From assembly GCA_013387205.1 (NCBI GenBank), contig WARV01000007.1, positions 1 through 57,718 of the forward strand: a stretch of 57,718 nt of DNA, in the 5' to 3' direction. Position 1 is the stretch's first letter. Each line of letters starts with the position of its first letter. A program made the position numbers and the translations under genes. Source of the DNA: Patescibacteria group bacterium (GTDB lineage: Bacteria > Patescibacteriota > Doudnabacteria > UBA920). This document shows positions 5,443 to 49,978 of this stretch, piece by piece. The notes beneath the pieces were generated by a model. The model was not told where the DNA came from, made no database searches, and saw only the letters and a list, made by a program, of their open reading frames with translations.

Positions 5443-5554
5443 GATATCTGTATGTCAGGATCGGAATAATCCGCGGCTTTTAAAAACTGCCATTTTATGT
5501 TATACTTATTTACTGAAATTCGTAGTTTTGAAATCAACAATTAAACAAACATAT

Positions 5555-7120: not shown

Positions 7121-7132
7121 ATATATAAAACA

Positions 7133-10100: not shown

Positions 10101-10546
10101 TAGTGGCAACGCTCATTGTGCAGTTTAACTCTTTCCGCAAAGCCTTTATGGTTTTAGTAACTATTCCTTTGGCGCTTATCGGCGTGTTCTTCGGCATGGC
10201 TTTGCTTAACGTGCACTTGAGCTTTCCGGGACTCATTGGAGTTTTGGCTTTGTTCGGGATTGTGGTGAAAAATGCTATCATCTTGGTAGACAAAATTAAC
10301 CTGAACATAAAAAGCGGCATTCCGTTTTTCGATTCAGTGGTAGATGCCGGCAAGTCCAGGATGGAAGCCATCTTCATCACTTCCATCTGTACAATTTTCG
10401 GTATTTTGCCCATCACTTTGTCCAACGACATGTGGCGGGCCTTGGGCAGTGCTGTGATTTTCGGGCTCATGCTGTCATCTTTCCTGACCTTATTCATTAT
10501 CCCGACCCTTTACGTGGCCTGGATTAAAGAAGACGAGAAGTTCTAG
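7133..10546 (+). CDS. RND-family efflux transporter (AcrB/AcrD/AcrF-like), 1137 aa
   Basis: Two large extracytoplasmic loops flanked by TM bundles. Motifs GLLVDDAIVVV and GIVVKNAIILVD. Starts 13 nt after the adaptor gene. Confidence 0.9.
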   Translation: MDITEQNQNPQTTVKTSDQRYLDKLEFNPELRKTWLNFFVSNFRVVILLIILVSAAGLYSFFKLPRESNPEVKIPIAVVTTVYPGASPADVEELVTKKIETKISGLKGIDKVTSTSANSYSAVVVEFDAKEDLKDSIRSLRDKVTDAKRDLPAEAKDPVVSEISLDDQPVLTLVLTGPYDGYTMRQYGETLKDELEKIPGVREVSINGGDEKEFAVEYDPDKLLYYGISADQANQAVAATNLGFPSGNFDGEKFVYPIRTDSKVYSAEDIGNIAISHTDAGGVVFLKDLAKVSESVIKKSTVSRLSISGDKPQSAVTLSVVKRSGSSILDTVDQAKKTADATVASFAPGIKYDATMDMAKFVRRDFDQLTHDFILTLLLVFGILFVIVGLKEAFVAGLAIPLTFFVTFTALKIIGISLNFLSLFSLILALGLLVDDAIVVVSATKQYLKSGKFTPEEAVLLVLNDFKVVLTTTTLTTVWAFLPLLFSTGIMGEYLKSIPITVSITLIGSLLVALMINHPLAAVLERIRLTRRFFWLVEILVLVFAGIFFYYGEWMGYVMGTILTASLAWAMWWYEKGGHRVLVENEVLSHAEWGSDELIKKKLQEQSSHKNPSLTSRLMHGVVHFDRVLPIYEKYLRKVISTKKQRRWVLGIVTLLFILAAAMPAFGIVKSEFFPPSDSDYVYVDIRTPVGQKLSETDLATRKVEEKLLDYPEIANFSTIVGHPGPMSQSSRNQTNLASITITLKDKKIRKIKSYDFANRLRRELPSFDNATVTISAPEGGPPAGSAFEARIKGDDLVKLDKIARDLEPKLASVPGVVNVDISLKESSPEYTFSLDPVKLEQNYLNAAYVGSTLRMAISGSDVSSVVTGGKEIKIVGRFDEYRIPKLEDVQNLQILNLRKQPVFLKDVAKIELKPSVDSITRIDQKRTVLLSSGAGAGTNSNLILADFKKNIADYQLPSGYSIVYGGQNETNQESVVSVIRAMVIAMVLIVATLIVQFNSFRKAFMVLVTIPLALIGVFFGMALLNVHLSFPGLIGVLALFGIVVKNAIILVDKINLNIKSGIPFFDSVVDAGKSRMEAIFITSICTIFGILPITLSNDMWRALGSAVIFGLMLSSFLTLFIIPTLYVAWIKEDEKF

Positions 10547-10572
10547 AATTTGCTTTAATTAAAGCAAAATTC
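10546..10572 (+). terminator. Hairpin after the RND gene
   Basis: gaatttgcttt-aatt-aaagcaaaattc, overlapping the stop codon. Confidence 0.5.
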
Positions 10573-10602
10573 CCAAAAATAGAAATCGCCAATGTTTATG
10601 GG

Positions 10603-10642
10603 CAAATGAATACCTCAACCGTACGGTTGAGGTATTCATTTG
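10603..10642. repeat. Perfect 40-nt palindrome, CTCAACCGTACGGTTGAG family
   Basis: caaatgaatacctcaaccgt|acggttgaggtattcatttg. Confidence 0.85.
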
Positions 10643-11038
10643 CTTGATTTTATTGGGGAAAATAAAACATAAGACAAACGCGAGGAAATTTTGTAATTGC
10701 CGTTACAAGCTTCAAATGATATGATTCTTTTAAGGCTTATTATGAAAGGCCTGAAACCTGCCGCCAGCCCGCTACGGGTATGAGACCAGATAAAATGAGG
10801 AAGCGGAGCTTCCACTTTGATAAGGAAACTGCCCTGATGCTCCACTGCTTGCAGTGGAGTCAGTTTCATAATTTGCCAGATAAGAAGCCATGAAATATTT
10901 AAGCCATCATTTTGTATTAACTAAGGGATAATTTTTAAACTTGGTACGATAATGCCGGCAAACACGGTCCGATTTTAGTGCAAGTTTCGCCAAACTATTC
11001 AAATTAACCAGAGTGTTTAACAACAAGCTTTAAATAAA

Positions 11039-12745
11039 ATGAAAGAATTTTACGCTAAACATAAGAAAAAAATAATCATTGTTGCAGTCATCCTTGTTGC
11101 CGGCGGAATTTACTGGAAATTCTTTTACAAAAAAGCGGACGCGCAGGTCCGGTATGTTTTGGAAACCGCTTCAAAGCAAACCATTACCCAAGCCATCAGC
11201 GGCAGCGGCCAGGTTAAAGCCTTAAGCCAGCTGGATATTAAGCCTTTGGTTTCCGGAACATTGGTGCAAATGAAAGTTAAAGATGGCGACCAGGTTAAAG
11301 CAGGCCAAGTCTTGGCAGTGGTTGACCAAAGGAACGCCGCGGCTTCTTTGGCCCAGGCAAAAGCCAGCCTCGATTCGGCCGAGGCTAATTACCAGAAAGT
11401 CATCAGTGGTGCTACTAATCAGGAACTTGCCGTTAATCAACTTTCGGTCCAATCGGCCCAGAACGGTTTGGATAAAGCGAATAAGGATTTGGATTCAACA
11501 AAGCGCCAGCAGGACACTCTGGTGGGCAATGCTTACCGTAACATGTTAAATTCAGGCTTAGCCGCAACGCCTGGTTCCGGCAATACTGGCAGTTCGACCG
11601 TCACGGTTTCAGGCGCTTACATTGGCACAGACCAAGGATCTTACACAATCAGCATATATGCAACAGGAGGAGGTTTAAGGTTTTCTTATTCCGGTCTGGA
11701 AACCGGTGATGGCTTGGTTGACACTGTCCCTAAGCCGCTTGGAACCAAAGGATTGTACGTCCAGTTTTCTTCAACGAGTATTCCGGTAAATAATGTTTGG
11801 ACTGTATCTTTGCCAAATGTTACATCTTCCGGATATTTAAACAGCTATAATTCTTACCAATCCGCTTTGCAAAGCCGCCAGGACGCGATTGATAACGCCC
11901 AGCAGGCGATAGTGTCAGCGCAAAACAGCCTGGACCAGGCCAAAGCAAATCTTGCTTTAAAACAGGAACCGGCAACTGCTGACCAGATTGCTTCCGCCCA
12001 GGCCCAAGTCAGCAGCGCCAAAGCCCAGCTGCTTAACGCATCAACCGCTTATTCCAATACGATAATAACCGCGCCTTTCGACGGGGCCATTACCCAAGCG
12101 GACGCCAAAGTTGGGGACCAGGCCAGCCCTAGCACGGCAATTGCGGTTTTGCTGACTAACCAGAAAGTCGTGGAAATATCTTTGAACGAAGTTGATGTGG
12201 CCAAAGTGCAAGTCGGGCAAAAAGCCACTATCACGTTCGATGCATTGTCGGATTTGTCTTTAACCGGCCATATCACTCAAATCGACCTTGTTGGCACGGT
12301 CAGCCAGGGTGTCGTGTCTTATAACGTGCAGATTTCTTTAGACAACCAAGATGACAGGATAAAACCGGGTATGAGCGCCAATGCTAACATTATTTTGGAC
12401 GTAAAGACAGATGTGTTAGCCGTGCCTAATAGCGCGATAAAGACACTGGGCAATAATTCTTATGTGGAAGTTTTGGCAAATCCTCCGGCTAACGCAAGCG
12501 ACCCGTCTGGCGTTATAAGCGTCACCCCGCCGGTCCAGAAACCAGTGCAGATTGGCATGTCAAACGATGAAGTGACAGAAATAACAAGCGGCCTTAACGA
12601 AGGCGACAGCGTGGTGGTGCAAACCGTAAATCCAGCTGCAACCAAAACTACCCAAACCCAGTCGAGCGGAGGCTTTGGCCTTCCGGGCGTAGGAGGCGGC
12701 GGTAATTTTAACAGGGTAATAAGGAGCACAAGTACTGGCAGGTAA
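11039..12745 (+). CDS. Efflux periplasmic adaptor (MacA/HlyD family), paralogue of 5555-7120 with the same inserted domain
   Basis: N-terminal [14 protein letters not shown], coiled coil, [19 protein letters not shown], and a C-terminal Gly-rich tail. Confidence 0.85.
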
Positions 12746-12755
12746 TTTTCCTACC

Positions 12756-13457
12756 ATGATAAAAATCCAAAACATTTCAAAATTATATAAGAGCGGCAAT
12801 GGTATAGAAACTTTGGCGTTGAAAGACGTTAGTTTCAACATTAACGATGGGGAATTCGTGGCTATTATGGGGCCATCGGGCAGCGGCAAATCGACCTTAA
12901 TGCACATTTTGGGCGCACTTGATACGCCAACCAGCGGAAAATATTTTTTGGACGAAAAGGATGTTTCGCAGATGACGGAAAACGAGCTGGCGAAAATCCG
13001 CAGAGAGCAGATTGGTTTCGTCTTCCAGGCTTTCAATTTACTGCCGCGCGCGTCCGTGCTGAGGAATGTCACGCTGCCTTTAATGTATGCGGAAATACCA
13101 AAAACCAAGAGGCAGGAACAAGCGGTTAAATCCCTGCATATGGCCGGGCTTAACGAAACGCACTTCGGGCATTTTTCCAACCAGCTGTCCGGCGGACAGA
13201 TGCAGCGCGTGGCCATTGCCAGGGCTTTGGTAAATAATCCCAAATTGATTTTAGCCGACGAGCCGACCGGGAATTTGGATACGCAAACCGGAGAATTGGT
13301 TTTGGGATCTTTTCAGGATTTAAACGAGCACGGGCACACGATTGTCATAATTACCCACGAACTCGATGTAGCCGCGCATGCCAAGCGCATAATCCATATC
13401 AGGGACGGGCGGATGGTGAAGGATGAAATTAACACTAACCAAATAAAGTTGAAATAG
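12756..13457 (+). CDS. ABC transporter ATP-binding protein, MacB/LolD/FtsE type
   Basis: Walker [10 protein letters not shown], signature [15 protein letters not shown], Walker [14 protein letters not shown]-loop ITHE. Confidence 0.95.
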
Positions 13458-13458
13458 C

Positions 13459-14682
13459 ATGATTACTAGCGATTTAATCTCCGAGACATATTGGGCGCTT
13501 TCCGGCAATAAAATCAGGTCGGCTTTGACAATGCTTGGAATAATTATCGGCATTAGTTCGGTTATTGCCATGGTTTCCATTGGGCAGGGTGCAAAAAATA
13601 ATATTGAACAGAGCATCCAGTCTGTCGGTTCGAACTTGATTATTGTCATGCCTGGCGCGCAGCGGGGAGTCGGCGTGCAGATTTCAAGCGGCCGCGGCAG
13701 CGCGCAGACTTTAACGCAGGAGGACGCTAATGCGATTTCAGGCAGCGTCAGCTTGGCCCAAGCCGTGGCGCCGGAACTGTCCCGAAGATATCAGGTGACA
13801 ACCAAAGGAAAAAATACCAACACCCAGGTGACTGGCACTGTGCCGCAGTATCTGGAAGTCAGGAATATCCAGATTGGGCAGGGTAGCTTTATCACCGACC
13901 AGCAGTCAAAGAGCGCGGCTAAAGTTGCGGTCCTCGGGCCAACCACGCGCGATGACTTGTTTGGGGCTAACGCCAACGCCATTGGCCAGGATGTAAAAAT
14001 CAACAATATGGAATTTAAGGTTATTGGCATAACCCAAGCCAAAGGCGGCAGCGGGTTTAGTAATCCCGATGACGCAGTGTATATTCCTCTGGCCACTGCG
14101 CAAAGGTATTTGGCAGGGGATACTTATGTCAGCGACATAAGCGTAAAAGCGCAAAGCCAGCAAGTCATGGCAACTGTCCAGCAGCAAATTACGGATTTGC
14201 TTTTGTCACGCCATCATATCAGCAATCCGCAGCTGGCTGATTTTAACGTCATCAACCAGGCTGATATTGTCGCGGCAGCAGGATCGGTTACTAATACTTT
14301 CACTTTGCTGTTGGCGTCCATCGCCGGCATTAGCTTGCTTGTAGGCGGGATAGGGATTATGAACATGATGCTGACTACTGTCACTGAGCGTACCAGGGAA
14401 ATTGGCCTTCGCAAAGCTATTGGCGCGGAGAGCGGCGATATTAACAGGCAGTTTTTGGCCGAGGCGGTAATGCTTACCTTTTTGGGCGGAGTTGCAGGGG
14501 TGTTGTTCGGCTGGGTAATGTCCCTGATAATTTCTCATTTTTCCAGCTTACAGACATCAATATCATTTTCTTCAATCCTTTTAGCTTTCGGAGTTTCCGC
14601 TACCATTGGCATAGTGTTTGGATATTACCCTGCCAGGCGCGCTTCCAAGCTTAATCCGATAGAGGCGTTGAGATACGAATAA
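13459..14682 (+). CDS. ABC transporter permease, MacB/FtsX type
   Basis: N-terminal TM, an extracytoplasmic domain of about 220 aa, three C-terminal TMs, and TERTREIGLRKAIGA. Starts 2 nt after the ATPase stop. Confidence 0.9.
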   Translation: MITSDLISETYWALSGNKIRSALTMLGIIIGISSVIAMVSIGQGAKNNIEQSIQSVGSNLIIVMPGAQRGVGVQISSGRGSAQTLTQEDANAISGSVSLAQAVAPELSRRYQVTTKGKNTNTQVTGTVPQYLEVRNIQIGQGSFITDQQSKSAAKVAVLGPTTRDDLFGANANAIGQDVKINNMEFKVIGITQAKGGSGFSNPDDAVYIPLATAQRYLAGDTYVSDISVKAQSQQVMATVQQQITDLLLSRHHISNPQLADFNVINQADIVAAAGSVTNTFTLLLASIAGISLLVGGIGIMNMMLTTVTERTREIGLRKAIGAESGDINRQFLAEAVMLTFLGGVAGVLFGWVMSLIISHFSSLQTSISFSSILLAFGVSATIGIVFGYYPARRASKLNPIEALRYE

Positions 14683-24692: not shown

Positions 24693-24732
24693 GAAATGCC
24701 TTATTTGCCGGTATAATTGAGGGCTTGAAATA

Positions 24733-24761
24733 TTGATTTTTAGGGCATTTTTTGCTATAAT
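24733..24761 (+). promoter_or_regulatory. Sigma-70-type promoter of ssrA
   Basis: TTGATT (24733-24738), 17 nt, TGCTATAAT (TATAAT at 24756-24761). The mature tmRNA 5' end is 12 nt downstream. Confidence 0.6.
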
Positions 24762-24772
24762 ATGGGTCACGT

Positions 24773-25169
24773 GGGGATGACGGATTTTGACAGGACTTTG
24801 ACATTTTCCAATATGCAAGACGAGTAAGCCTTCACACCTCGTTAAAATTGTTAAGGCATCATAAATGCTACTACTGCATTTGAAAAAGTGAAGACTGCAT
24901 TGGCTAACGCCTTTGCTCCTTCCTTCGTCCTCGCTTAATTTAAGTGAAGACACTTGCCCCATTCTCCATCTCAAGAATGGATAAGCAAGCTTATCTGAGG
25001 TTGCAACTTAGGCGTTTGATTTACTCGCCAAAGCCAAGTATTCGTAAATCAACCTTAATGTTTTAGTCGTCAGTTACTAGCATTAGGGCACTTTTAGCTG
25101 ACTAATCTTGTGAACAATTGGGAGTTGAGAAGATCTTGGACGCGGGTTTAACTCCCGCCATCTCCACCA
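24773..25169 (+). ncRNA. ssrA: tmRNA (transfer-messenger RNA)
   Basis: 5' GGGGAUGACGG pairs with 3' CCAUCUCC-ACCA, including the G3:U wobble. T-arm GCGGG-UUUAACU-CCCGC. The internal tag frame ends ..ANAFAPSFVLA-TAA (stop 24936-24938). Confidence 0.95.
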
Positions 25170-25178
25170 TGATAAATT

Positions 25179-25201
25179 ACCGCTTATATTAGCGGTTTTT
25201 T
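25179..25201 (+). terminator. Rho-independent terminator of ssrA
   Basis: accgct-tatatt-agcggt followed by ttttttattttt. Confidence 0.75.
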
Positions 25202-25213
25202 ATTTTTCAACCC

Positions 25214-25241
25214 TTGACTAAACCCTATATTTTGCTATAAT
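25214..25241 (+). promoter_or_regulatory. Sigma-70-type promoter
   Basis: TTGACT (25214-25219), 16 nt, TGCTATAAT (TATAAT at 25236-25241). Confidence 0.6.
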
Positions 25242-25326
25242 ATTACGTTCCCAATTGGAAAACAACCTCATTGTTCCGGGAGGTGAATTCTAGGACATAC
25301 AACTTGCAAAAAAGGAGGAGTGAGTT

Positions 25327-25566
25327 ATGACTAACCAAGAAAGACAAGCTTTAAAGAAGGAGAAAACAATACTCAAGGATCAAATACCCGAAGCCAAGCA
25401 TGCCGTACAGAAAGCTCGTGATGATATGCGCTGGGCTGAACGTCACGGTGGCCGCAACTTTGACTTCAGTGGCCTCAATGAATGTTCATATCAGGCGAGT
25501 GTGCGGCTGAGTAACATTTTCGACCGAATTCGGGAGATCAACGAATTACTCTACCCGAAAAGTTAA
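25327..25566 (+). CDS. Hypothetical small coiled-coil protein (79 aa)
   Basis: Strong RBS AAAGGAGGAG 7 nt before the ATG, and its own promoter. No recognisable motif. Confidence 0.6.
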   Translation: MTNQERQALKKEKTILKDQIPEAKHAVQKARDDMRWAERHGGRNFDFSGLNECSYQASVRLSNIFDRIREINELLYPKS

Positions 25567-25715
25567 AGCAGGGCGAAGTCTTTGCACCTGGTAAACCTTG
25601 TTGGGCCTCTACTGTAAAGTCGGGGCTCTTCTTTTTTTATAAACAAACACAAAATAAAATAACTACAATCATTTATAATATCGCCAAAAACGCATTAGGT
25701 AATCAAAGAGACTGT

Positions 25716-25937
25716 TTGATAAATTATTCGTCTTGTCCACCACGTACCATTCGCTACGCTCAGGTACGTGGCGCAGCCACGAACACTTGGGCAAATGGTA
25801 CGTGCAGTGTACCCGAACGCAGTGAGTGGTTCGCTGCCGCTAGCGCCGCCAGGCGACATGAGGAAGCGAGTGGTGAGTGCCCTGCACCGGAGGCTTTAGC
25901 CGACTGGTACAGGGCTGGCGCAGCAATAAAAAAATAA
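25716..25937. repeat. GC-rich block of stacked hairpins upstream of the second GIY-YIG gene
   Basis: ccacgtacc..ggtacgtgg (25739-25771) encloses ccattcgctacgctcaggtac, a variant of the TCGACAAGCTCAGG motif. gccctgcacc..ggtacagggc is also present. ORFs on both strands here look like artefacts. Confidence 0.55.
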
Positions 25938-25950
25938 AAGAGTATCTCAA

Positions 25951-26175
25951 ATGCCAATACAATTTCATTACGTATATATCTTACACAGCCTTAAAGATGG
26001 GCTGTTTTATGTTGGTTATTCCGATAATCTTAAGCAACGAGTCAATGATCACAACATGGGTAAAAATATATCCACTAAAAATCGCCGCCCACTTGAATTA
26101 ATTTTCTATGAAGCCTTCCCCAACAAGTTTGACGCACTATGTTTTGAATACCTTATTTTACTTAATTGTAATTAA
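25951..26175 (+). pseudogene. GIY-YIG nuclease family gene, probably C-terminally degenerate
   Basis: FHYVYILHSLKDGLFYVGYSDNLKQRVNDHN is a good GIY-YIG N-terminus. After ..ELIFYEAFPNKFDAL the expected REKxxK/GW-type tail (present in 17849-18118) is replaced by CFEYLILLNCN-stop. Confidence 0.55.
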
Positions 26176-26241
26176 ATTAAATCGGAGTATAATAAAAATA
26201 TAGCCTTAATCTAGGGAAATAAAATATTTTTCCTTGTTTTT

Positions 26242-27531
26242 ATGAAACGATATTTAATCGTGCTTTTGTTTTTTCTTATATTTGGGGGTATTTATATCTC
26301 CTCTCAAACAACCCAAGCCTATGGAGAGTGTTCTGAATATGGTTTGATGATCACTTATGATTCTTATACCCACACTTGCAAGTGTATGAGCGGTTACGTT
26401 TTTGGCAAAAACTTTATGGGAGAACCATATTGTGTTTCTGCTGACCAGGTGTGCCGCGATAAGCTCGGAATAATGTCTCGCTATAATTCTTTAAGTGACT
26501 CTTGTGAATGTAGTTACGGATATGTTATAGGCACGGACTCTATTGGTAGGACGCAGTGTATTTCCAGGGATGACCAATGCCATAAGCAGCTTGGTTATAA
26601 TTCAAGTTATAATATCTTAAAAAATGCTTGTGTTTGCAGGTCGGGGTACATAATTGACGGTGGAACTTGCCGAGACGGTGATACTGTTTGTAGGAATGAC
26701 CATGGTTTATATGCCGAATACAATAGTAGTTCTAATAGATGTGAGTGTGAAAGTGGTTATACTTTCGACGATAATAACCAATGCGTGAAAAAACAAAATA
26801 ACGTTTATTTCTATTTAAAGGAAGTTGATACGGATAACCGTGAAGCAATTATTAAAAGTGAGTATGACTATACTTATTACCTAATTCGTTATGGAATTGG
26901 CTGTTATAGTTCGAGCATTAAAAGATATTTGCGAAACGATATTGTTGTAAATTTGGGTATAGATTTTGACTTGGATACTTGGGATAAAATTGTCTTGCAG
27001 GATGATAATGAAACTTGCGATATAACCAGTGTTCATCGCGCGTCTTCGTCCGATACCTTAGTCCCAGTAGAAGAATCAGATTATACCTATGTTGCGCCCG
27101 TGCCTGCAATTGTTGCGCCGCCCACTCCTTTTATTAACAGTCAGACGACTGCTTTACCTAAAACTTGCCCGGAAGGCCAGGCTCTAACTTTAGATAAAAA
27201 AAATTGTGTATCTATCCCTGCTAATTCTCACGCCGCTTTAAACAGTAAGACAGATATTTGGGAGTGTGATGAAGGTTATAAAGAAGTAAACAATAAATGT
27301 ATAAAAATAGAAAATGTTTTAACTGTAAAACAGACACAATCAGATAGTGATGCTAAAGTTGTAGTGGAACAAGCTAGGTCCAACTCGCCGATTATTACAG
27401 CTTCTGAAAATAGCCAGAACCAACAAGGTGTGGCTCCGCAAAAATCTGAATCAAAAGTCAAATCCTTTTTTCGAGGGATTGGTAGAGGAATTGGAAACTC
27501 ATTTAAAAAAATTGGAAATTGGTTCAAGTAA
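26242..27531 (+). CDS. Secreted cysteine-rich repeat protein (EGF-like CxC..GY modules), unknown function
   Basis: Signal/TM IVLLFFLIFGGIYISS. At least four tandem modules of about 38 aa: C..(L/H)G....YN.....C.C..GY(V/I/T)......C. Confidence 0.7.
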   Translation: MKRYLIVLLFFLIFGGIYISSQTTQAYGECSEYGLMITYDSYTHTCKCMSGYVFGKNFMGEPYCVSADQVCRDKLGIMSRYNSLSDSCECSYGYVIGTDSIGRTQCISRDDQCHKQLGYNSSYNILKNACVCRSGYIIDGGTCRDGDTVCRNDHGLYAEYNSSSNRCECESGYTFDDNNQCVKKQNNVYFYLKEVDTDNREAIIKSEYDYTYYLIRYGIGCYSSSIKRYLRNDIVVNLGIDFDLDTWDKIVLQDDNETCDITSVHRASSSDTLVPVEESDYTYVAPVPAIVAPPTPFINSQTTALPKTCPEGQALTLDKKNCVSIPANSHAALNSKTDIWECDEGYKEVNNKCIKIENVLTVKQTQSDSDAKVVVEQARSNSPIITASENSQNQQGVAPQKSESKVKSFFRGIGRGIGNSFKKIGNWFK

Positions 27532-27542
27532 AATTACACTTT

Positions 27543-27857
27543 ATGTCACCATTTAGCAATCAACAAGAGTCCCCTGACAATCAGGCAATTAGGGAGTTGC
27601 GTGATGAAACTAAAGACTTAAATAAGACTTTAAAAAAGGCCATCAGAAGCACTGATAGATTTTCCTGGGCTTTTATGATTTTGGCTTTCGTGCAGATAGC
27701 TATTGGTTTATTTCAATACATCCAAGATTCTTTAAATTCCAATCCAAATAAATGGATGGGTCTTCTTTGGGTTTTAGTTTTAGTAGGAGTTATATTTGGA
27801 ATAATTAAGTCAGGATTTAAAGAAGATGTCAAATCGAAAAATAAAGATATAAAATAG
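27543..27857 (+). CDS. Small two-TM membrane protein
   Basis: Helices FSWAFMILAFVQIAIGLF and LLWVLVLVGVIFGII. It lies 12 nt after the upstream stop and 21 nt before the next start. Confidence 0.55.
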   Translation: MSPFSNQQESPDNQAIRELRDETKDLNKTLKKAIRSTDRFSWAFMILAFVQIAIGLFQYIQDSLNSNPNKWMGLLWVLVLVGVIFGIIKSGFKEDVKSKNKDIK

Positions 27858-27878
27858 TTTAACTTATCACAAAATATT

Positions 27879-30800
27879 ATGAACGAACAAATAATTTATA
27901 GAGGCTCAGAATGGAGAAAATGGGACTTACATATCCACACTCCAGCATCCTTCCACTGGAATGGTGGTAAAAAATTTTTAGAAGCAGACCAGGGTGAGCA
28001 AGAACAAATTCTTCAAAAAATGGTCGATGCGATAAATAGTTCAGATGTCGCTGTTTTTGCAATGACAGACTATTGGACTTTCGACGGATATCTTAAATTA
28101 AAAGATTTTGTAAAAAGAAATAATATAAAGTTAGACAAAACCGTTTTTCCTGGAATGGAGCTTAGAGTTGAAGCCCCCGTAAACTACAGACTAAATATTC
28201 AAGTAATTCTTTCTGATGAGCTTACCCAACAGCAATTACAGGATTTTAAGTCGAAATTAAAGATAGCGAGTATTAATAGAAATTTATCCGACGATGCTTT
28301 AAAAGATTTTGCAAGAAGCCTTGATGACAGTAAAGCAAAAGTTTGTGGATTTGGTTCCGTTTCTACATTAAGTGACATTCAATTGCTCCAATTGGGAGCA
28401 AAGACAGCAGAAGTGACCAAGGAATCGTTATGTAAAGACGCCTTTGAAGCCATCCCCGCGTATAGCGGTTACATTTTATTGCCTTATGACACTTCTGATG
28501 GTTTAAAAAACCTGGATTGGACTACTCATCCACACGATGATAATTATTTTATGCAATCCGCGGATTTGTTTGAATCACGTAACGATGAAACAGTCGACTT
28601 ATTTTTGTGTAGAACTACCGATAAAAATAAAAACTTTATTAAAAATTTTGTAAAGACAATAGGTGGTGAGCCGAAGCCAGTGGTATGCGGTAGCGATGCT
28701 CACAAAATTGAAGATTACGGTAAGTATCCTAATGGTAGAGTTACTTGGATAAAGGCAGATACTACATTTTTAGGATTAAGCCAGGTTATAAATGAACCTG
28801 CGGACAGGGCATATGTTGGCACACTTCCAGATAAATTAGTTGAGGTAAATAACCACAAATCAAAGTATATTGACTCAATCAAAATAACAAACACTCACGC
28901 CAGCGCTTCACCTTCTTGGTTTAGTAATGAGTTACCACTTAATAATGGTTTAGTAGCTGTGATTGGTAAGAAAGGAAATGGAAAAAGCGCGCTTGCTGAT
29001 ATAATAAGTCTTTGTGGGGACAGCAAGGTTAGCCCTGTGGAATACTCCTTTCTGAAACCTAATAAATTTAGAAAGCGCGGGTTGGCGCGCAATTATGAGG
29101 CCACATTAAATTGGCTTGATAGTCAAAAATCAAAAAAGAATCTTGATGAAGATGTTCAGATGGCAACGTCTGTTGAGAAAGTTAAATATTTACCTCAACA
29201 ATATGTTGAAAACATTTGCAATGAAGACGGAGTAAGCACCTTATTCCAGCAAGAAATTGATAAGGTAATCTTTTCTTACGTTCCAGAAGAAAGCCGATTA
29301 GGAACAAGGAGCCTCGCGGAACTCATTAAAATTAAGACTGAGTCGGTTGATAGTTCTCTTTTAACTGCGCGTGCGGATTTGCATAGAATCAATGAACGCG
29401 TTACTTCTTTGGAAGATAAGGAAAATCCAGAATATCTTGAGTCGCTAAACAAAAAGCTGGAAGGGAAAAATCAAGATTTAAAAAATTTATCCAAGCCAAA
29501 AGCTATAAAAAAACCTAAAACTACTTTAAGCAAAGTAAAAGAGAATAAAATCAACAGACTTACGTCCGCAATCTTGAAAGTTAACGGTCAGATTGATAAT
29601 GCTCGCGAAGAATTGAAAAATGTAAATAACAAACTCCACAAACTAAATAGAATTATTGATAAAATCTCAAATTTAAAAGAAGACATAGCTGGGTTAATTG
29701 AAACATTTAAAGAAGACGCAATAGAGCTTTCAATTGACTTATCTAAGGTAATTAATTTAAAAATTTCGGAAGCAGGTTTAATTACAAAGCAAGAAGGCTT
29801 ATTAACAGAAAAAGAAAAATTAGACAATAAGTTAGAACAGAATAATCCTAAATCAAAGGTAAGCCTTTTAAATAACAAAACAAAATTAGAGTCCCAATTA
29901 GAAAGCATCACTGAGACTCTTGGCGCAGACCAGAAATTATATGAACAGTATCAAAAAGAGCTAAAACTATTTGAAGAAAGGGAAAATGCAATAGAAGGTA
30001 AAAAAGGCGACACCAGTTTGGAAACCATCGCTGGTCTTGAAACTGAAATAGATTTTGTTAAAAATAAACTGAGTAGTGCGTTGCAAGAGCAGTATAGAAA
30101 ACGTGGCGATGCCCAAAAAAGATTATTTTTAGAAATTGAAAAAAAGATAGCTTTCTACCAAGAGGTTTACACCCCGCTTGTGCACTTCATAAAAAGTGAA
30201 GAAAAAACACAAAAAGAATCAGGGAGTGTATTAAATTTTAGTGCTGGGTTGATTTTTGATAAACAAAAATTTATTACAAACTTCTTTTCATTTATAAACC
30301 AAGGCAAGGATGGTAGCTTTCAAACTGTAGTAGGTGGCCAAAAAATACTCAATAATATTATAGAAAAATTTGATTTAACGAAAAAAGATGACGTTGGCAA
30401 ATTTGTTGATGATGTTATTGACCACCTAAAAAATGATAAAACCCAAATAACACCAAAGGCCAATCTTATAAAATCCCAGCTCAAAAAAGACCAGGTATCA
30501 TTCTACGATTTTCTGTTTGGTTTAGACTATCTGGGTGTTAAGTATAAAATACTTTTTAACGACAAAGACTTAAATGCGAATGAGTTTTCTCCTGGTGAGA
30601 AAGGAGCGTTGTTACTAATATTTTATTTACTTATTGATAAAGACAACGTGCCGCTGGTAATTGACCAACCAGAAGAAAATTTAGACAATGAGTCAGTGTA
30701 TACCTTACTTGTCCCTTATATCAAAAAAGCAAAGAACAGAAGGCAAATTATAGCAATTACTCACAATCCTAACCTTGCGGTTGTTTGTGATGCTGAACAG

Positions 30801-31046
30801 GTTGTTTGTGCTGTAATGGATAAAAAGAAAAATGAGATTAGATATACTTCTGGAAGCATAGAAGACCCTGCTACAAATAAAAAAATTGTAGATATTTTGG
30901 AAGGAACACTGCCTGCTTTCACGGTTAGAGATAGAAAGTATATCAGGAAGAAAATTAACGGTTCCAAACGAAAGAACTCTATACAGTTCGATACCAGCGA
31001 TTTAGCAATTGCTAAACTTCTTAAACAGGCAGAACTAAAACCCTGA
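27879..31046 (+). CDS. PHP-domain phosphoesterase fused to a Rad50/SMC-like coiled-coil ABC ATPase (Ppl-like defence candidate)
   Basis: PHP motifs WDLHIHTP, AMTDYW, GMELRV, CGSDAHK. Walker A VIGKKGNGKSAL, Q-loop YLPQQ, a coiled coil of about 300 aa, signature-like FSPGEKGAL, Walker B PLVIDQPEENLD, H-loop AITHNPNL. Confidence 0.8.
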   Translation: MNEQIIYRGSEWRKWDLHIHTPASFHWNGGKKFLEADQGEQEQILQKMVDAINSSDVAVFAMTDYWTFDGYLKLKDFVKRNNIKLDKTVFPGMELRVEAPVNYRLNIQVILSDELTQQQLQDFKSKLKIASINRNLSDDALKDFARSLDDSKAKVCGFGSVSTLSDIQLLQLGAKTAEVTKESLCKDAFEAIPAYSGYILLPYDTSDGLKNLDWTTHPHDDNYFMQSADLFESRNDETVDLFLCRTTDKNKNFIKNFVKTIGGEPKPVVCGSDAHKIEDYGKYPNGRVTWIKADTTFLGLSQVINEPADRAYVGTLPDKLVEVNNHKSKYIDSIKITNTHASASPSWFSNELPLNNGLVAVIGKKGNGKSALADIISLCGDSKVSPVEYSFLKPNKFRKRGLARNYEATLNWLDSQKSKKNLDEDVQMATSVEKVKYLPQQYVENICNEDGVSTLFQQEIDKVIFSYVPEESRLGTRSLAELIKIKTESVDSSLLTARADLHRINERVTSLEDKENPEYLESLNKKLEGKNQDLKNLSKPKAIKKPKTTLSKVKENKINRLTSAILKVNGQIDNAREELKNVNNKLHKLNRIIDKISNLKEDIAGLIETFKEDAIELSIDLSKVINLKISEAGLITKQEGLLTEKEKLDNKLEQNNPKSKVSLLNNKTKLESQLESITETLGADQKLYEQYQKELKLFEERENAIEGKKGDTSLETIAGLETEIDFVKNKLSSALQEQYRKRGDAQKRLFLEIEKKIAFYQEVYTPLVHFIKSEEKTQKESGSVLNFSAGLIFDKQKFITNFFSFINQGKDGSFQTVVGGQKILNNIIEKFDLTKKDDVGKFVDDVIDHLKNDKTQITPKANLIKSQLKKDQVSFYDFLFGLDYLGVKYKILFNDKDLNANEFSPGEKGALLLIFYLLIDKDNVPLVIDQPEENLDNESVYTLLVPYIKKAKNRRQIIAITHNPNLAVVCDAEQVVCAVMDKKKNEIRYTSGSIEDPATNKKIVDILEGTLPAFTVRDRKYIRKKINGSKRKNSIQFDTSDLAIAKLLKQAELKP

Positions 31047-31144
31047 TGGTTTATATCTCTTTATTAGCTGAAATTGTTGAATAATTTTTTCTAAATAATC
31101 GTGCCAAGACGCAGAGACCTTGTCCACCTTATAATAAAAATTAG

Positions 31145-31176
31145 ACCACCCTTCGATAAACTCAGGGTGGTTTTTG
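31145..31176 (+). terminator. Hairpin terminator whose loop carries a CCCTTCGATAAACTCAGGG motif copy
   Basis: accaccct..agggtggt followed by ttttt. The motif is at 31149-31167. Confidence 0.65.
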
Positions 31177-31221
31177 TTAATGGGTTGTGTTTCTTTTTCT
31201 ATCCACAGGGGATAAAAACTT

Positions 31222-31233
31222 GTGTGCTATAAT
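31222..31233 (+). promoter_or_regulatory. Extended -10 promoter of the riboswitch transcript
   Basis: TGTGCTATAAT, with TATAAT at 31228-31233. There is no good -35. Confidence 0.45.
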
Positions 31234-31249
31234 ATTTTTACAACTTTAT

Positions 31250-31440
31250 ACGATTAGTTCCCCCCAAGCGTGCGGGGGTTGGCCAGGGAATCCGGTTAGA
31301 TTCCGGAACTGTGCCGCAACTGTAAAATCCCTGCTTAGGCAGGGAATGAGTCAGATTGCTGGCTAGCTAATTGTACGTCGTCCTTCGCTTTCCGAGCAGG
31401 AAGTGGGGGATTTAAGGTTGTATCCACAACAGAAGAAGGG
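31250..31440 (+). promoter_or_regulatory. Cobalamin (B12) riboswitch
   Basis: GCCAGGGAAUCCGGUUAGAUUCCGGAACUGUGCCGCAACUGUAA matches the conserved AGGGAA.CCGGUGAAAAUCCGG..CUG.CCCGCAACUGUAA core. It is preceded by a CCCCC..GGGGG hairpin. A B12-box-like GAGUCAGAUUGCUGGC follows, in which CUGGC can pair with upstream GCCAG. Confidence 0.75.
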
Positions 31441-31444
31441 AAAA

Positions 31445-31876
31445 ATGAAACGCAGAACTCTGCTGAGCGTGTTTTTTTGCAGTCCCGTCCTGGCGGCTGT
31501 TCATTCCGTCAGTCAGGTGTTAAATGACGGCAGTCTTTACCAGTCCGGTTACCGGAACGGCTACCCTTTTAACTCGACAGTTAAGGTTGGCTCCGATGCC
31601 AGCGTGGCTAAGTACGAACTCAACCTTACCTGCATGCGGGCAAATACGGTAGAAGGAATGCTCCGCGCCGCCGGATTCGAGCTGGGGATAAAGAACGACT
31701 TTTCCAGCCTGCCGGGACAAGCGCTGATAAACGTAGTAGAGGATGTAGCCGGAAGTTTCAACATTCTGGTTAACGGCCAATTGTTTTTGTTTGACAGCGC
31801 ATCCACCTATAAAGTGGCAGCTGGCCAAAAAATCACAGTCCGCCTCGCCGCTCCCGGCACCATGGTTCCCAAATAG
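31445..31876 (+). CDS. Riboswitch-controlled secreted protein (143 aa), possibly a DUF4430 / transcobalamin-beta-like B12 binder
   Basis: Purine-rich RBS-like GAAGGG 5 nt before ATG 31445. Signal peptide MKRRTLLSVFFCSPVLAAVHS. The C-terminal half TVEGMLRAAGFEL..GQALINVVEDVAG.SFNILVNGQ..SASTYKVAAGQKITVRL resembles my recollection of the DUF4430 pattern (..L...G.......G.fi.sI.G....W.y.VNG.....a..y.v..GD.I.f.y). Confidence 0.7.
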   Translation: MKRRTLLSVFFCSPVLAAVHSVSQVLNDGSLYQSGYRNGYPFNSTVKVGSDASVAKYELNLTCMRANTVEGMLRAAGFELGIKNDFSSLPGQALINVVEDVAGSFNILVNGQLFLFDSASTYKVAAGQKITVRLAAPGTMVPK

Positions 31877-31940
31877 CCCGAACGGGAAAATGCGAGTAAA
31901 TTTAGCCACTGCCTTGCTCTGTTTTCTGCCCAAACCTGAG

Positions 31941-31975
31941 CCGCCTTGATTTCCATATCAAGGCGGTTTCGTTTT
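31941..31975 (+). terminator. Rho-independent terminator
   Basis: ccgccttgat-ttccat-atcaaggcgg followed by tttcgtttt. Confidence 0.75.
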
Positions 31976-32006
31976 ATCTTTGGAGTATTGTCCTAGAAGT
32001 ATTTTC

Positions 32007-32042
32007 AACGGCTAAATCCTAAAAATAGGCGTTTTAGCCGTT
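32007..32042. repeat. AACGGCTAAA-family hairpin
   Basis: aacggctaaatcc-taaaaata-ggcgttttagccgtt. Confidence 0.75.
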
Positions 32043-32047
32043 TGTTT

Positions 32048-32130
32048 ATGTCATTCCCGGCCAGGTTGGAATCCATGCTTTGATATTAATTAGAATCCTG
32101 GATCCCGGATTGAGTCCAGGATGGGGCAAG
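32048..32130. repeat. TGTCATTCC(C)GG-type palindromic element
   Basis: It starts tgtcattcccggccagg and contains aatcctggatcccggattgagtccaggat hairpins. It is related to 33152-33241. Confidence 0.55.
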
Positions 32131-32321
32131 GATGTGTTTATAAATTCTGGATTTTTTTATGATTTTTGGTATGATGAATTAAGAGTAATTAAATTAACCC
32201 CGTATAACATCATTCGATTTTGTTACAGTATCCAACATATTGAAAACAACTAGGCTCAGACTATTATCAAATTTTGATTTTACTGACCATATCGAATGTT
32301 GTATTACGGGGCAAGATAAAA

Positions 32322-33113
32322 ATGCTCAACAATTTAAAAGCAAACAAAATTTTATGGGTGCTGGTCGCTGTGTTATCCATAATCGCATCGCTTGCCGGAA
32401 TTTCATCCAAAGCTTCAATTTATAACGAAGTTGTCGGTGCTAATTTAATTTCCGGAGCGTTTGGCCAGGATTTAATGAGCTTAGCCGCGGGCATCATCTT
32501 ATTTTTACTGGCTTTGTTTTCCAAACAGGGGAGCACGAAAAAACACATTGTCGCGCTTGGCCTGCTTGGCTACTTCTTTTACGCTTATGGAATTTATGTA
32601 ATTGAACGGGCGTATAACGCATATTATTTGCTTTACATGGCAATTTTTGCCCTCTCATTTTGGGCTATGGTTTACGGCTCGTTTAACATCAGCAAAGAAT
32701 TATTGCAAAAAGCAGGGCTTTCAAACCGCGTCCGCGTTTTCTCGTTAATCGTGGCAATCTTTCAGCCAGTAGTTTTTTATCCGCTCTGGATATCCGCGCT
32801 TCTTCCTTTAATGCGCACGCATAACCGGATTGAATCTTTATATTCCATTTACATTTTAGACCTTTGCTTTATAATGCCGGCATTTTTGATTTTGGCTTAT
32901 TATCTGCTAAAGGAAAAAGTAATAGGTTATTTGCTTTCCCCGGCAATGTTCATTTTAGGATTTACATTGATATTTTCTTTAAGCCTTAGCGAACTGGTAA
33001 AGCCGATTTTTGGCGGAACTACTGACATAGGCAGCTTGGTTTCTTCTCTGGTTTTGTCGATTTTATTTTTATCTGCCTCAGTCTTGCATCTTGGAAAATT
33101 AAAAACGCAATAA
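32322..33113 (+). CDS. Polytopic membrane protein (about 8 TM), unknown function
   Basis: Regularly spaced hydrophobic helices. ATG 32322 gives an N-terminus just ahead of the first TM. Confidence 0.6.
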   Translation: MLNNLKANKILWVLVAVLSIIASLAGISSKASIYNEVVGANLISGAFGQDLMSLAAGIILFLLALFSKQGSTKKHIVALGLLGYFFYAYGIYVIERAYNAYYLLYMAIFALSFWAMVYGSFNISKELLQKAGLSNRVRVFSLIVAIFQPVVFYPLWISALLPLMRTHNRIESLYSIYILDLCFIMPAFLILAYYLLKEKVIGYLLSPAMFILGFTLIFSLSLSELVKPIFGGTTDIGSLVSSLVLSILFLSASVLHLGKLKTQ

Positions 33114-48110: not shown

Positions 48111-49367
48111 TTAGTGGTAAATAAATCCGCGGACTGTCCTGTTATCAGTGCTTATCCAGCGCTGGCTGATTATGCCTTTGCCTTTATAGTTCATTTCCGA
48201 AATCAGGAACCTGTCGTCTTCCACTTTTTCAACCAAAGCGACGTGCCCATATTTGCGGTTGTCATTCGTCACTACAATTGCGCCAACAGCCGGCTCGCTG
48301 GAAATAACCGCGCCAAAGCTTTTAGCATTAGCCAGCCAGTTCTTAGCATTGCCGCCCCATGGCACATGGACTCTGGTCGCGACATACCAGGTGCAGTAGC
48401 CCCACGGGAAAATATGGCCGGTGCCGTCGTAGTGGTAAGTCGGTTCAGTGGTTCCCGGTTTTCCTGCTTTAGCTTTTGGCTTTACAGGCTTGGGCGTTGG
48501 GGGAGCCGGCATTGTGCCGCCAGGCACAATTAACAATTGGCCCGGCTCTATATCTTCTTCGCTTTCCAGCATGTTATAGCTCATTATCTTGGCAATGTCA
48601 GCTGAGTATTTCTTTGCCACGTCTGGCAACGTGTCATTGCTGGAAGCTTTATGGAGCACTCCGTCAACCGGCAAAATAACCAACTGCCAGCCTGGCTTAA
48701 TCTGTTCGCTGGTGAGCTTGTTTGCCCACATGATGGTCTTTGTGGAAATGCCGTTTGCAGCAGCAATGGATTTTAAGGTATCGCCCGGCTTGGTTTCGTA
48801 GATTTTGATTTGCTTATCAAGCAAGCTCTGGATGCTGTCGGGGCTGGGTTTAACCAGGGCTCCGTCGCTGATCACGTAATTCTGGCTGTCTTCTTCGGCG
48901 GCGTTGATATTTTGCGTGTCCAGGCCGGCAAAATCTTCGGCTTGGGCTTGGGCAAAGATAAAGTTCCCGTCAGCAACTGTCGTTATGATGCTGGTGTTTT
49001 TAGCGTAAAGCTTTTCGTTCAGTCCGGGATGGTAACTCAAGAATTTGGCTGCCAAGCTGCCGTCGCTATAGGATTTTACCTGGTTTCCGGAAAAGAAATA
49101 AAAATTGAGCAAGGCGGTTATAATGGCAATAGATAAAACCAGAAGTTCGCTGGAAAACTTCAAAGAATAATCATACCCATCCATAGCTTTAAAATGGATG
49201 GCCGGAAATGCGTTTAAATGCACCTTCTTCAATTGCGGTGCCCTGGCCCTGAGCTTAAAGAAAAACTTTTTTGTATAATATTGTGCGATAAAGGCAATCT
49301 TTGCGGCAATAGCCTTGATTTTAGATTGCCAGAATTTAATCGTTTTAATATTTGCTCCCTTACCCAA
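48111..49367 (-). CDS. Peptidoglycan hydrolase: TM anchor + 2 LysM + C-terminal CHAP domain
   Basis: LysM: YETKPGDTLKSIAAANGISTKTIMWANKL and HKASSNDTLPDVAKKYSADIAKIMSYN. CHAP: GYCTWYVATR..GHVALVEKV. The start is uncertain: the ORF opens with TTG at 49367, and the first ATG is 49184, just before the TM. Confidence 0.8.
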   Translation of the reverse strand: MGKGANIKTIKFWQSKIKAIAAKIAFIAQYYTKKFFFKLRARAPQLKKVHLNAFPAIHFKAMDGYDYSLKFSSELLVLSIAIITALLNFYFFSGNQVKSYSDGSLAAKFLSYHPGLNEKLYAKNTSIITTVADGNFIFAQAQAEDFAGLDTQNINAAEEDSQNYVISDGALVKPSPDSIQSLLDKQIKIYETKPGDTLKSIAAANGISTKTIMWANKLTSEQIKPGWQLVILPVDGVLHKASSNDTLPDVAKKYSADIAKIMSYNMLESEEDIEPGQLLIVPGGTMPAPPTPKPVKPKAKAGKPGTTEPTYHYDGTGHIFPWGYCTWYVATRVHVPWGGNAKNWLANAKSFGAVISSEPAVGAIVVTNDNRKYGHVALVEKVEDDRFLISEMNYKGKGIISQRWISTDNRTVRGFIYH

Positions 49368-49978
49368 GTAAGCTATAACCGTTACATGTGAGCTTTGGGG
49401 GTGGTAACCTATGGCAGTTTTTAAAAATCGTAATAAATCCAGGCACTATTTTTAATCGGCTCGGAGTTATAAATAGCCAATCTTTGTTATTTTACCCTGA
49501 TTTTATCTGAAAGCTTTGTCAGGTAAAAAATAGTGCTTGGATAAAAAAACTCAAAGGATGGGCGAACAAAAAATACCCTACAAAATAAGCCCAAACTTTA
49601 AGCTTGAAATTACCATAGATTATTAATAGTCTCCCTTTGCCTTGTTAAACCCTAATTTTTTGGTTTTTAACAAGCACGGAATTTATTTATCTTATTGTAG
49701 TTTACAAGCCTTAAGGGTATATAGCAAGACTTTAATCCACAATTGCTGATTTTATCCTTATTTTAAGGGAAAAATTGTAAATTATGGCTTTATAAAGCCA
49801 GATTTAACTAAATATCAAATTCCAAATAACAAATGTCAAACAATGCCTAAAATTACCAACATTCAATGATCAAAAGCTGCAATTGTTGGAAATTAGGTAT
49901 TAGGATTTATTTGGAACTTGTGATTTGATATTTGAAATTTTTACCTATGTTATAATTACTTGTGCAAACGTTATTTCT

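Follow-up and report, generated by a model that had tools for sequence, protein, structure and literature searches.

Results

A PHP-ABC ATPase gene assigned to the TrlF family

We analysed a stretch of 57,718 nucleotides (nt) from a Patescibacteria genome (contig WARV01000007.1 of assembly GCA_013387205.1; the whole stretch is called the window), and here describe its gene at 27879-31046 on the forward strand, which joins a PHP domain to an ATP-binding cassette (ABC) ATPase in one polypeptide and which profile matching places in the TrlF family. Consistently with an earlier description made from the letters of the window without database searches (the sequence-only reading), the open reading frame (ORF) listing gives a single intact ORF with an ATG start and 1055 amino acids (aa), and all the motifs quoted in that reading were found in the translation, at the residues listed here below the domains.

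27879..31046 (+): TrlF-family PHP-ABC ATPase gene (ORF; NF045780, 636.9 bits)
27903..28733 (+): PHP domain, residues ~9-285 (AlphaFold2, Foldseek, invariant ligands)
28734..28883 (+): conserved linker, residues ~286-335 (invariant positions in 38 homologues)
28884..29318 (+): ABC head N-lobe, residues ~336-480, with Walker A at 363-370 and Q440 (motifs, AlphaFold2)
29319..30221 (+): antiparallel coiled-coil insert, residues ~481-781 (AlphaFold2 helices)
30222..30941 (+): ABC head C-lobe, residues ~782-1021, with SPGEKG at 904-909, D929-Q-P-E932, D936 and H962 (AAA_21)
30942..31046 (+): C-terminal end, including a window-only tail and the stop codon (model confidence; similarity ends at 30958)
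Residues 15-22: WDLHIHTP, PHP
Residues 61-66: AMTDYW, PHP
Residues 92-97: GMELRV, PHP
Residues 270-276: CGSDAHK, PHP
Residues 363-370: GKKGNGKS, Walker A
Residues 437-441: YLPQQ, Q-loop
Residues 903-911: FSPGEKGAL, signature
Residues 926-936: LVIDQPEENLD, Walker B and D-loop
Residues 960-966: ITHNPNL, H-loop

Conservation was read from an alignment of 38 homologues with 40-75 % identity to the window protein. Invariant throughout were H18, H20, D64, E94 and D273 of the PHP motifs (H275 being His in 37 of the 38), G363, K365, G366, G368, K369 and S370 of Walker A, Q440 of the Q-loop, S904, G906 and E907 of the signature, D929, Q930, P931 and E932 of the Walker B region, D936 of the D-loop and H962 of the H-loop. 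Since these key residues do not vary, the motifs are not chance look-alikes. A decaying pseudogene was ruled out, the ORF being full-length with every family-invariant residue kept.

The window protein matched the NCBIfam model NF045780, "TrlF family AAA-like ATPase", with 636.9 bits (E 9.1e-191; cut-off 350), residues 8-1021 aligning on model positions 1-943 of 944, and by this profile evidence the gene is an intact, full-length member of that named family. The sequence-only reading had instead likened it to Ppl, reportedly described by Gao et al. in 2020 as a single-gene anti-phage system. The Ppl model NF042955 gave 87.9 bits, far below its cut-off of 1000, and the Ppl model of PADLOC, PDLC02208, gave 75.7 bits, the strongest part of the match lying C-terminally (residues 546-1017); for comparison, PDLC02208 scores 1826 bits on a genuine E. 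coli plasmid Ppl and 76 bits on a Vibrio plasmid TrlF. Because it fails both Ppl models, the window protein is placed in a sister family and not in Ppl itself. PADLOC v2.0.0 holds no TrlF model of its own, and its only strong match was this partial one. A third sister family, the Spaf_1101 family AAA-like ATPase (NF045781), scored 118 bits, short of its cut-off of 475, with alignment limited to the ~125 residues of the C-terminal head lobe, and Pfam yielded a borderline AAA_21 match alone (residues 881-966).

The relation to Ppl was examined with an annotated Ppl protein from an E. coli IncFIA plasmid (L032:2679-5351). BLASTP aligned patches only, with 34 % identity across the last 114 residues and further patches in the GSDAH/Walker A region and at the N-terminal HxH, and hhalign extended the match over the full length of the two proteins, starting at the GS-W-K-D-H-x-H motif near the N-terminus and reaching the C-terminus (99.7 %, E 2e-26, 818 columns, ~22 % identity). 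On this alignment TrlF and Ppl are homologous along their whole length, yet form separate sister families; the relatedness proposed by the sequence-only reading stands, and the family to which the protein belongs is TrlF, not Ppl. The two share the domain order, with PHP and NTPase in a single gene, and both are stand-alone genes on mobile DNA. Common motifs are GS-W-K-D-H-x-H-TPAS, GSDAH, the W-x-K linker, Walker A and D-Q-P-E-(D/E)-x-L-D; the fuller linker motif W290-x-K292...G299...E306-P307..R310...P317, invariant in the 38 homologues, is recognisable in Ppl too. The window protein is ~160 aa longer than Ppl. With the rest of its own family it shares length class and the architecture of a PHP domain plus a split ABC head, and its invariant motifs are the same in plasmid-borne TrlF of Vibrio, Delftia, Staphylococcus and Yersinia. 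Its host is a Patescibacteria bacterium, unlike the Photorhabdus that gave the family its name, and whereas the name-giving locus has trlG and trlR, the window gene has no TrlG-like or TrlR-like neighbours; most homologue loci likewise lack such partners.

Predicted structure of the window protein

An AlphaFold2 (AF2) model built on the 38-sequence alignment had a mean predicted local distance difference test (pLDDT) score of 85.4 and a predicted TM-score (pTM) of 0.67, with pLDDT <50 from residue 1009 onward. Its N-terminal part forms a seven-stranded PHP barrel with a helical insert at ~112-196; strands lie at 12-19, 57-65, 88-97, 105-111, 197-202 and 230-232, and the seventh, at ~267-272 before D273-x-H275, is absent from the DSSP elements and was assigned here. 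The coiled coil, estimated at about 300 aa in the sequence-only reading, appears in the model as long helices spanning 488-781 (488-535, 552-609, 632-706 and 717-781). Foldseek against the PDB returned an ATPase group, made up of SMC, MukB, Rad50, JetC (Wadjet), LmuB (Lamassu) and RecN heads with coiled coils, and a PHP group, made up of RNase AM (9etk/7ug9), 2yb1, 3o0f and the PHP domain of Pol III α (4jom), at E 2e-5 to 3e-4 and with target TM-scores of 0.39-0.53 for the stand-alone PHP entries. Through the AF2 model and these two groups of matches, the predicted anatomy of a PHP barrel fused to an SMC/Rad50-type ABC head, itself split by a ~300-aa coiled coil, is confirmed at the level of structure prediction, and with it the PHP-Rad50-like fusion that had been read from the motifs. 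A PDB sequence search with the single window protein found nothing at E ≤ 1; the family profile found weak Rad50, SMC and AriA head matches (E ~1e-5) and weak tropomyosin matches over the coiled-coil span, with no PHP or Ppl entry and thus no solved close relative by sequence.

Like Rad50/SbcC, JetC and LmuB, the window protein couples a nuclease, putative in its case, to an ABC head that an antiparallel coiled coil divides. In those systems, however, the nuclease is a separate Mre11/SbcD, Toprim or Cap4 protein, whereas here it would be the fused PHP domain, and no Mre11/SbcD partner gene adjoins the TrlF gene. With ~300 aa in all, the coiled coil is short, and unlike those of Rad50 and SMC it carries neither zinc hook nor hinge: there is no Cys between residues 447 and 970, and therefore no Rad50 CxxC zinc hook, and no SMC hinge domain is present. 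Likeness to the PHP enzymes RNase AM/YciV, TrpH-like 2yb1, Pol III alpha and PolX lies in the barrel fold (Foldseek) and in the conserved HxH, Glu and DxH ligands; unlike RNase AM, 2yb1, Pol III alpha and PolX, the window PHP domain is fused to an ABC ATPase.

A 29-aa C-terminal tail from ~residue 1027 (30959-31043) is found in the window TrlF and in no homologue, and the gene has apparently lost its ancestral stop codon.

A remodelled PHP site and a glutamine in Walker B

In Ppl the canonical PHP positions read D-H after β2, N-V-H in β4, A-H-I-D after β5 and P-H-A-V-E in β6. Their putative counterparts in the window protein, mapped by sequence alignment and not by structural superposition, are DY against DH, NIQ against NVH, LPYD against AHID and ADLFE against PHAVE, which leaves four of the nine canonical ligand positions without His. 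Among the 38 homologues, position 65 is Tyr in 34 and His in 4, position 108 is His in 18 and Gln in 16, position 201 is Leu in 21, Met in 12 and His in 4, and position 229 is His in 20 and Asp in 11; Q108 and D229 of the window protein thus stand where many family members have His. Some TrlF proteins, on a Staphylococcus plasmid and in a Bdellovibrionales metagenome-assembled genome, retain the canonical His set, and the clade of the window TrlF keeps six invariant or near-invariant PHP ligands with the four canonical His replaced. Judged from the alignment, the core PHP ligands are invariant yet the site is remodelled. The possibility raised in the sequence-only reading, that the metal ligands might not be conserved, is thus neither borne out nor fully dispelled: H18, H20, D64, E94 and D273 are invariant, with H275 nearly so, and the putative counterparts of the four His vary.

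The Walker B region reads D929-Q930-P-E932, and residue 930 is Gln in all 38 homologues and in Ppl. In Rad50, SMC and ABC transporters, the catalytic Glu directly follows the Walker B Asp, and in ABC ATPases an E-to-Q change traps the ATP-bound dimer and slows hydrolysis. Since the window protein has Gln where Rad50 has the catalytic Glu, and since such a change slows hydrolysis, the residue suggests a head that is more a nucleoside triphosphate (NTP) sensor or slow switch than a motor; E932 might be an alternative catalytic base.

TrlF is widespread, mobile and found in changing neighbourhoods

A word-indexed search recovered 2806 homologues at E ≤ 1e-5, and an exhaustive profile search of 1.84 billion cluster representatives recovered 3127 at E ≤ 1e-30 and 7558 at E ≤ 1e-10; the TrlF family comprises ~3,100 clusters at 50 % identity. 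In PLSDB, 1144 plasmid records matched, 824 of them predicted conjugative, and among the matches listed, most of the underlying features bear the annotation "TrlF family AAA-like ATPase" or that of "anti-phage protein Ppl". Full-length relatives lie on 13 viral contigs of IMG/VR, and phage GenBank records hold no full-length homologue, the best covering 46 % of the query. Homologues with 41-49 % identity are scattered across Patescibacteria, Omnitrophica, Acidobacteria, Alphaproteobacteria, Leptospira and one Thermoproteota archaeon, which argues for extensive horizontal transfer.

Scanning contigs with the single window protein as query gave 11 loci (an alignment query would reach more). The neighbourhoods of the closer homologues are as follows.

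76 % identity, L006: TrlF immediately follows genes for RadC-Dam methylase, AlwI endonuclease and N6/N4 methylase
74 %, L001/L002: preceded by genes for Type III-like methylase and DEAD/ResIII; the surrounding element also encodes a large serine recombinase and TrwB-like ATPase
70 %, L003-L005, Parcubacteria C7867-001: TrlF closes an element that also carries serine recombinase, PrimPol primase and HTH_17
67-68 %, L023/24, L025, L028/29: operon of Type III Mod, Res, TrlF, S49 peptidase and DUF2726 genes
61 %, L026/27: alone, adjoining hydroxyproline-catabolism genes
Five-gene cassette coordinates: L023 1416-10422; L028 2-9012; L025 1919-10363

In Patescibacteria, translational coupling recurs between TrlF and genes for Type III restriction enzyme, S49 peptidase and DUF2726, with 4-nt gene overlaps in the cassettes of L023/L024 and L028/L029, including those between Res and TrlF and between TrlF and the S49 (SppA-like) peptidase; this five-gene cassette may be a composite defence operon. 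Some distant relatives adjoin HsdS, or RhuM and HsdR (Type I restriction-modification), others a PD-(D/E)XK protein or unrelated metabolic genes, and plasmid relatives adjoin integrases, IS66, Fst toxins, resolvase or an Abi protein. Altogether, the ~22 distinct TrlF loci differ in context and show no synteny, either with one another or with replication or repair genes. When the window was compared with every homologue locus, nucleotide and protein similarity was limited to 27899-30958, within the TrlF ORF; because the loci share that ORF alone, a syntenic housekeeping role is excluded. The window gene is, on this comparison, accessory and not core, and is best read as horizontally acquired; the neighbourhood comparison proposed in the sequence-only reading, which had favoured an accessory gene, returned the variable restriction-modification, mobile-element and plasmid contexts described above. 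As the distribution of the family indicates, the window TrlF is best described as a stand-alone, horizontally mobile single-gene unit, supported by the confinement of similarity to 27899-30958 and by a GC content of 0.35 against 0.44.

Two observations on these loci are recorded separately. The five-gene cassettes ride integrative elements, which also carry serine recombinase and DUF5659 genes. Moreover, a DUF4238 gene occurs near the E. coli Ppl (L032 1375-2376) and near a Delftia TrlF (L022 14359-15078), both on plasmids and next to parM/stbA partition genes.

The low-GC islet and the two upstream genes

The TrlF gene lies in a low-GC islet (25951-31238) with a GC content of ~0.35 against 0.44 in the rest of the window, which drops sharply at ~25950 and climbs again at ~31100-31240. 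The islet contains, besides TrlF, a 74-aa GIY-YIG ORF, a Cys-rich ORF and an ORF with two transmembrane segments (2-TM), and its edge lies ~780 bp downstream of the transfer-messenger RNA (tmRNA) gene.

24773..25169 (+): tmRNA, ssrA (ARAGORN; Rfam RF00023, 113 bits)
25951..26175 (+): GIY-YIG ORF, 74 aa, at the left islet edge (Pfam PF01541, E 9.8e-17; GC 0.33)
26166..26193 (+): promoter-like site TTGTAA-16-TATAAT ahead of the Cys-rich gene (consensus scan only)
26242..27531 (+): Cys-rich secreted EGF-like ORF, 429 aa (300 homologues; a common Patescibacteria family)
27519..27857 (+): 2-TM ORF, 112 aa (sub-threshold family matches only)
31144..31176 (+): terminator-like hairpin and U-run ~100 nt past the TrlF stop (-19.2 kcal/mol, z-score -2.1)

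The sequence-only reading had pictured the Cys-rich, 2-TM and PHP-ATPase genes as a three-gene arrangement with gaps of 21 and 12 nt. The 21-nt gap between the 2-TM gene and TrlF was found as described; the other is 11 nt when counted from the first ATG of the 2-TM gene, or a 13-nt overlap when counted from a TTG start. Co-transcription of the three is plausible, since a promoter-like site lies upstream, no terminator-like site occurs in the two short intergenic gaps and a hairpin follows the TrlF stop; the site at 26166-26193 is a possible start of such a transcript.

Relatives of the two upstream proteins were sought with tblastn (E ≤ 0.01), tblastx and blastn in 33 loci, the ~22 distinct TrlF loci among them. 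None of the latter, including those with TrlF 61-76 % identical, contained a relative of either the Cys-rich or the 2-TM protein, the sole matches in the 33 loci being the two loci that had been chosen for the Cys-rich protein itself. The closest homologues of the Cys-rich protein (57-61 %) lie in unrelated contexts with no TrlF adjoining, and no PADLOC model matched either upstream protein. A three-gene system is thus not supported, because co-occurring relatives are absent and similarity ends at the edges of the ORF; judged from these comparisons, the arrangement is a local accident of insertion, not a system, and the Cys-rich and 2-TM genes are probably co-transcribed neighbours in the same AT-rich islet and not parts of the machine. 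The sequence-only reading had itself named co-occurrence of the two genes beside homologues as the observation to look for, and it was not found in the ~22 TrlF loci.

In one of the loci with a 57 % homologue of the window Cys-rich protein (L031 789-5416), that homologue lies ~2 kb from an RVT_1 and bAvd pair. Such a pair is the hallmark of a diversity-generating retroelement.

Discussion

The gene encodes a TrlF-family single-polypeptide PHP-ABC protein of a family that moves as a single gene among restriction-modification islands, integrative elements, plasmids and prophages. We consider it likely that, by analogy with Ppl, it is a one-gene defence nuclease, whose targets would be phages or other invading DNA. 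That the copy in the window is itself a defence or anti-invader nuclease is held with slightly less assurance, as probable; that it works broadly like Ppl is tentative and somewhat doubtful. Ppl protects E. coli against phages including T7, and Bas63 gp130 counters it (PMC11482910). According to a 2026 review, it is a single-stranded DNA (ssDNA) 3'-5' exonuclease kept inactive by NTPs on its PHP and NTPase domains, and becomes active when nucleotide depletion coincides with 3'-OH ends produced by phage homing endonucleases (PMC12904381); the primary paper on the mechanism is Xu et al., Mol Cell 2026;86:180, as cited in PMC13434339. By analogy, two TrlF head domains would dimerise around bound NTP and the enzyme would be held off, the coiled coils and head would engage DNA ends, and the nucleotide state or DNA-end signals of infection (DNA ends plus a fall in NTP) would release the PHP domain, which would then degrade DNA from exposed 3' ends.

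Several observations weigh against this interpretation. Anti-phage activity, NTP sensing and 3'-end sensing are demonstrated for Ppl alone; both Ppl models were missed by a wide margin and the kinship amounts to only ~22 % identity, on which, the models having failed, any transfer of mechanism must rest. The four canonical PHP positions kept as His by Ppl are substituted by Y65, Q108, L201 and D229. Moreover, NCBIfam led to TrlF, and of the profile searches proposed by the sequence-only reading, PADLOC led to a partial Ppl match of 75.7 bits and the Pfam PHP model PF02811 did not match the window protein at E ≤ 0.1; a precomputed PF02811 match is present on the homologues P0013, P0014 and P0075. 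Because the four His are substituted and PF02811 is unmatched, nuclease activity of the window protein is not certain, and doubt over a simple copy of the Ppl mechanism comes mainly from the remodelled PHP site. The literature is sparse: a full-text search found no paper with the phrase "TrlF family", no phage test of any TrlF protein, and, among papers with "TrlF", only a Photorhabdus study concerning this protein. That study gave TrlF its name, after the "temperature restriction locus" trlG-trlF-trlR of Photorhabdus laumondii, and ties the temperature-restriction phenotype to the neighbouring trlG, as the mutations permitting growth at 36 °C lay in trlG and no trlF mutants were recovered (PMC7554251).

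The marks of mobility around the window copy are also few. No direct repeat of the tmRNA 3' end was found within 24700-32500, no recombinase or integrase occurs among the islet ORFs or the window ORFs scanned, and stretches equally AT-rich exist elsewhere in the window, for example 49001-50000 at 0.34, so that the GC of the islet is not unique. Since there is neither repeat nor recombinase, and AT-richness is matched elsewhere, the idea of an island at ssrA rests only on proximity and composition. A tmRNA-targeted genomic island was rejected on the missing integrase, the missing ssrA 3'-end repeat and a GC shift that begins ~780 bp past the tmRNA. Of the AT-richer islet beside ssrA in the sequence-only reading, the islet remains, though its composition is not extreme, and the link to ssrA is weak, with no att site and no integrase.

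Four other explanations were weighed against a one-gene defence nuclease. The TrlF protein could be a tool of the mobile elements on which it travels, competing with or excluding rival mobile DNA or stabilising the element, with the window copy as leftover cargo. The predicted conjugative nature of 824 of the 1144 PLSDB plasmid records, some of whose listed matches adjoin partition genes, speaks for it, as do the nearest CPR (Candidate Phyla Radiation) relatives, which are cargo of serine-recombinase/PrimPol elements, and the 13 IMG/VR contigs that carry TrlF; yet no mobility gene is left nearby in the window, and this role is compatible with anti-phage defence, mobile elements being the usual carriers of defence genes. 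We regard such a role, taken instead of defence, as unlikely. An accessory of restriction-modification systems, which would for instance process Type III or Type I DNA ends and of which the window copy would have been orphaned from its partners, would account for the 4-nt overlaps of TrlF with Res and S49 genes in several relatives, for the TrlF genes embedded by HsdS or HsdR in other loci, and for the Type I methyltransferase genes within the trl-like locus of the Yersinia ruckeri plasmid pYR3 (PMC7554251). However, many homologues, among them the 70 % Parcubacteria one and most plasmid copies, have no adjacent restriction-modification genes, and because the type of system varies by locus (III, I, II), clustering in defence islands fits better than a fixed partnership; the accessory role is improbable.

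A fused analogue of SbcCD or Mre11-Rad50 in housekeeping double-strand-break repair is suggested by the ABC head and coiled coil, which resemble those of Rad50, RecN and SMC, and by a 70 % homologue named "ATPase involved in DNA repair" in one source. It is contradicted by the lack of synteny with replication or repair genes, the contexts being restriction-modification operons, integrative elements and plasmids, by the patchy spread across phyla, by the missing zinc hook (no Cys 447-970) and by the Gln in place of the catalytic Glu; furthermore, the trl locus of Photorhabdus is patchily distributed and can be deleted whole (PMC7554251). A repair role is consequently very improbable. Scarcely credible, finally, is a membrane-coupled three-gene system in which the Cys-rich and 2-TM proteins would sense or anchor at the envelope and work with the PHP-ATPase: the three genes share a strand and a low GC of 0.32-0.37, are separated by 21 nt and by ≤11 nt, and follow a promoter-like site with no terminator-like site in their gaps, but neither upstream gene has a relative in the ~22 TrlF loci, the Cys-rich family is broad (300 matches) with its nearest members (57-61 %) lacking TrlF, and no PADLOC model matches the upstream proteins.

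With a one-gene defence nuclease of the TrlF family as the preferred interpretation, the largest gene of the islet now has a name and a likely role, and a tempting three-gene story is removed. Residual novelty lies in the TrlF family and not in the window locus, the family being already named and very widespread, and knowledge of how PHP-ABC proteins are built is not changed. Being large, mobile and a sister family to Ppl, whose action as a defence nuclease has been characterised, TrlF is a reasonable lead for those who catalogue defence systems, and CPR bacteria carry it, often wired into Type III restriction operons. That it is an abundant defence family with a remodelled active site, and more than a diverged copy of Ppl, is a rather unlikely extension. 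CPR bacteria are in general regarded as unable to make nucleotides de novo; should an NTP-gated nuclease operate in one of them, immunity would be tied to the supply of nucleotides.

Other features of the window

The host agrees with the CPR origin supposed in the sequence-only reading: the closest named relatives of the arginyl-tRNA synthetase (ArgRS) are from "Patescibacteria group" and "Candidatus Doudnabacteria" (60-66 %), and the closest named TrlF and Cys-rich homologues are likewise from Parcubacteria/Patescibacteria. At the right border of the islet lies a riboswitch.

31239-31380 (+): cobalamin riboswitch RF00174, abutting the right islet border (33.7 bits against a gathering score of 31.5)

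Directly behind it, an ORF at 31403-31876 (157 aa) has a hydrophobic N-terminus and no Pfam match, and might encode a B12-regulated secreted or binding protein of the CPR genome.

The only notable repeat within 24700-32500 is a promoter-like 11-mer, TGCTATAATAT, which resembles an extended -10 element and occurs four times in the window against 0.05 expected. Its copies at 24753, 25233, 31225 and 39276 (+), none within the low-GC islet, each stand just upstream of a transcription unit, namely the tmRNA, the ORF at 25327, the riboswitch and ArgRS.

The islet is separated from a 79-aa ORF by 380 nt with a GC of 0.48 (25567-25950), which hold no convincing gene and contain an inverted repeat (25741-25754 / 25791-25804); Rfam at E ≤ 1 on 25150-26250 gave nothing beyond the tmRNA end. 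Farther upstream, an efflux cluster (5441-14682), large for a Patescibacteria genome, includes an AcrB-type resistance-nodulation-division (RND) transporter (7133-10546) with an inserted heavy-metal-associated (HMA) match, flanked by HlyD-like adaptors and a MacB-type ABC pump.

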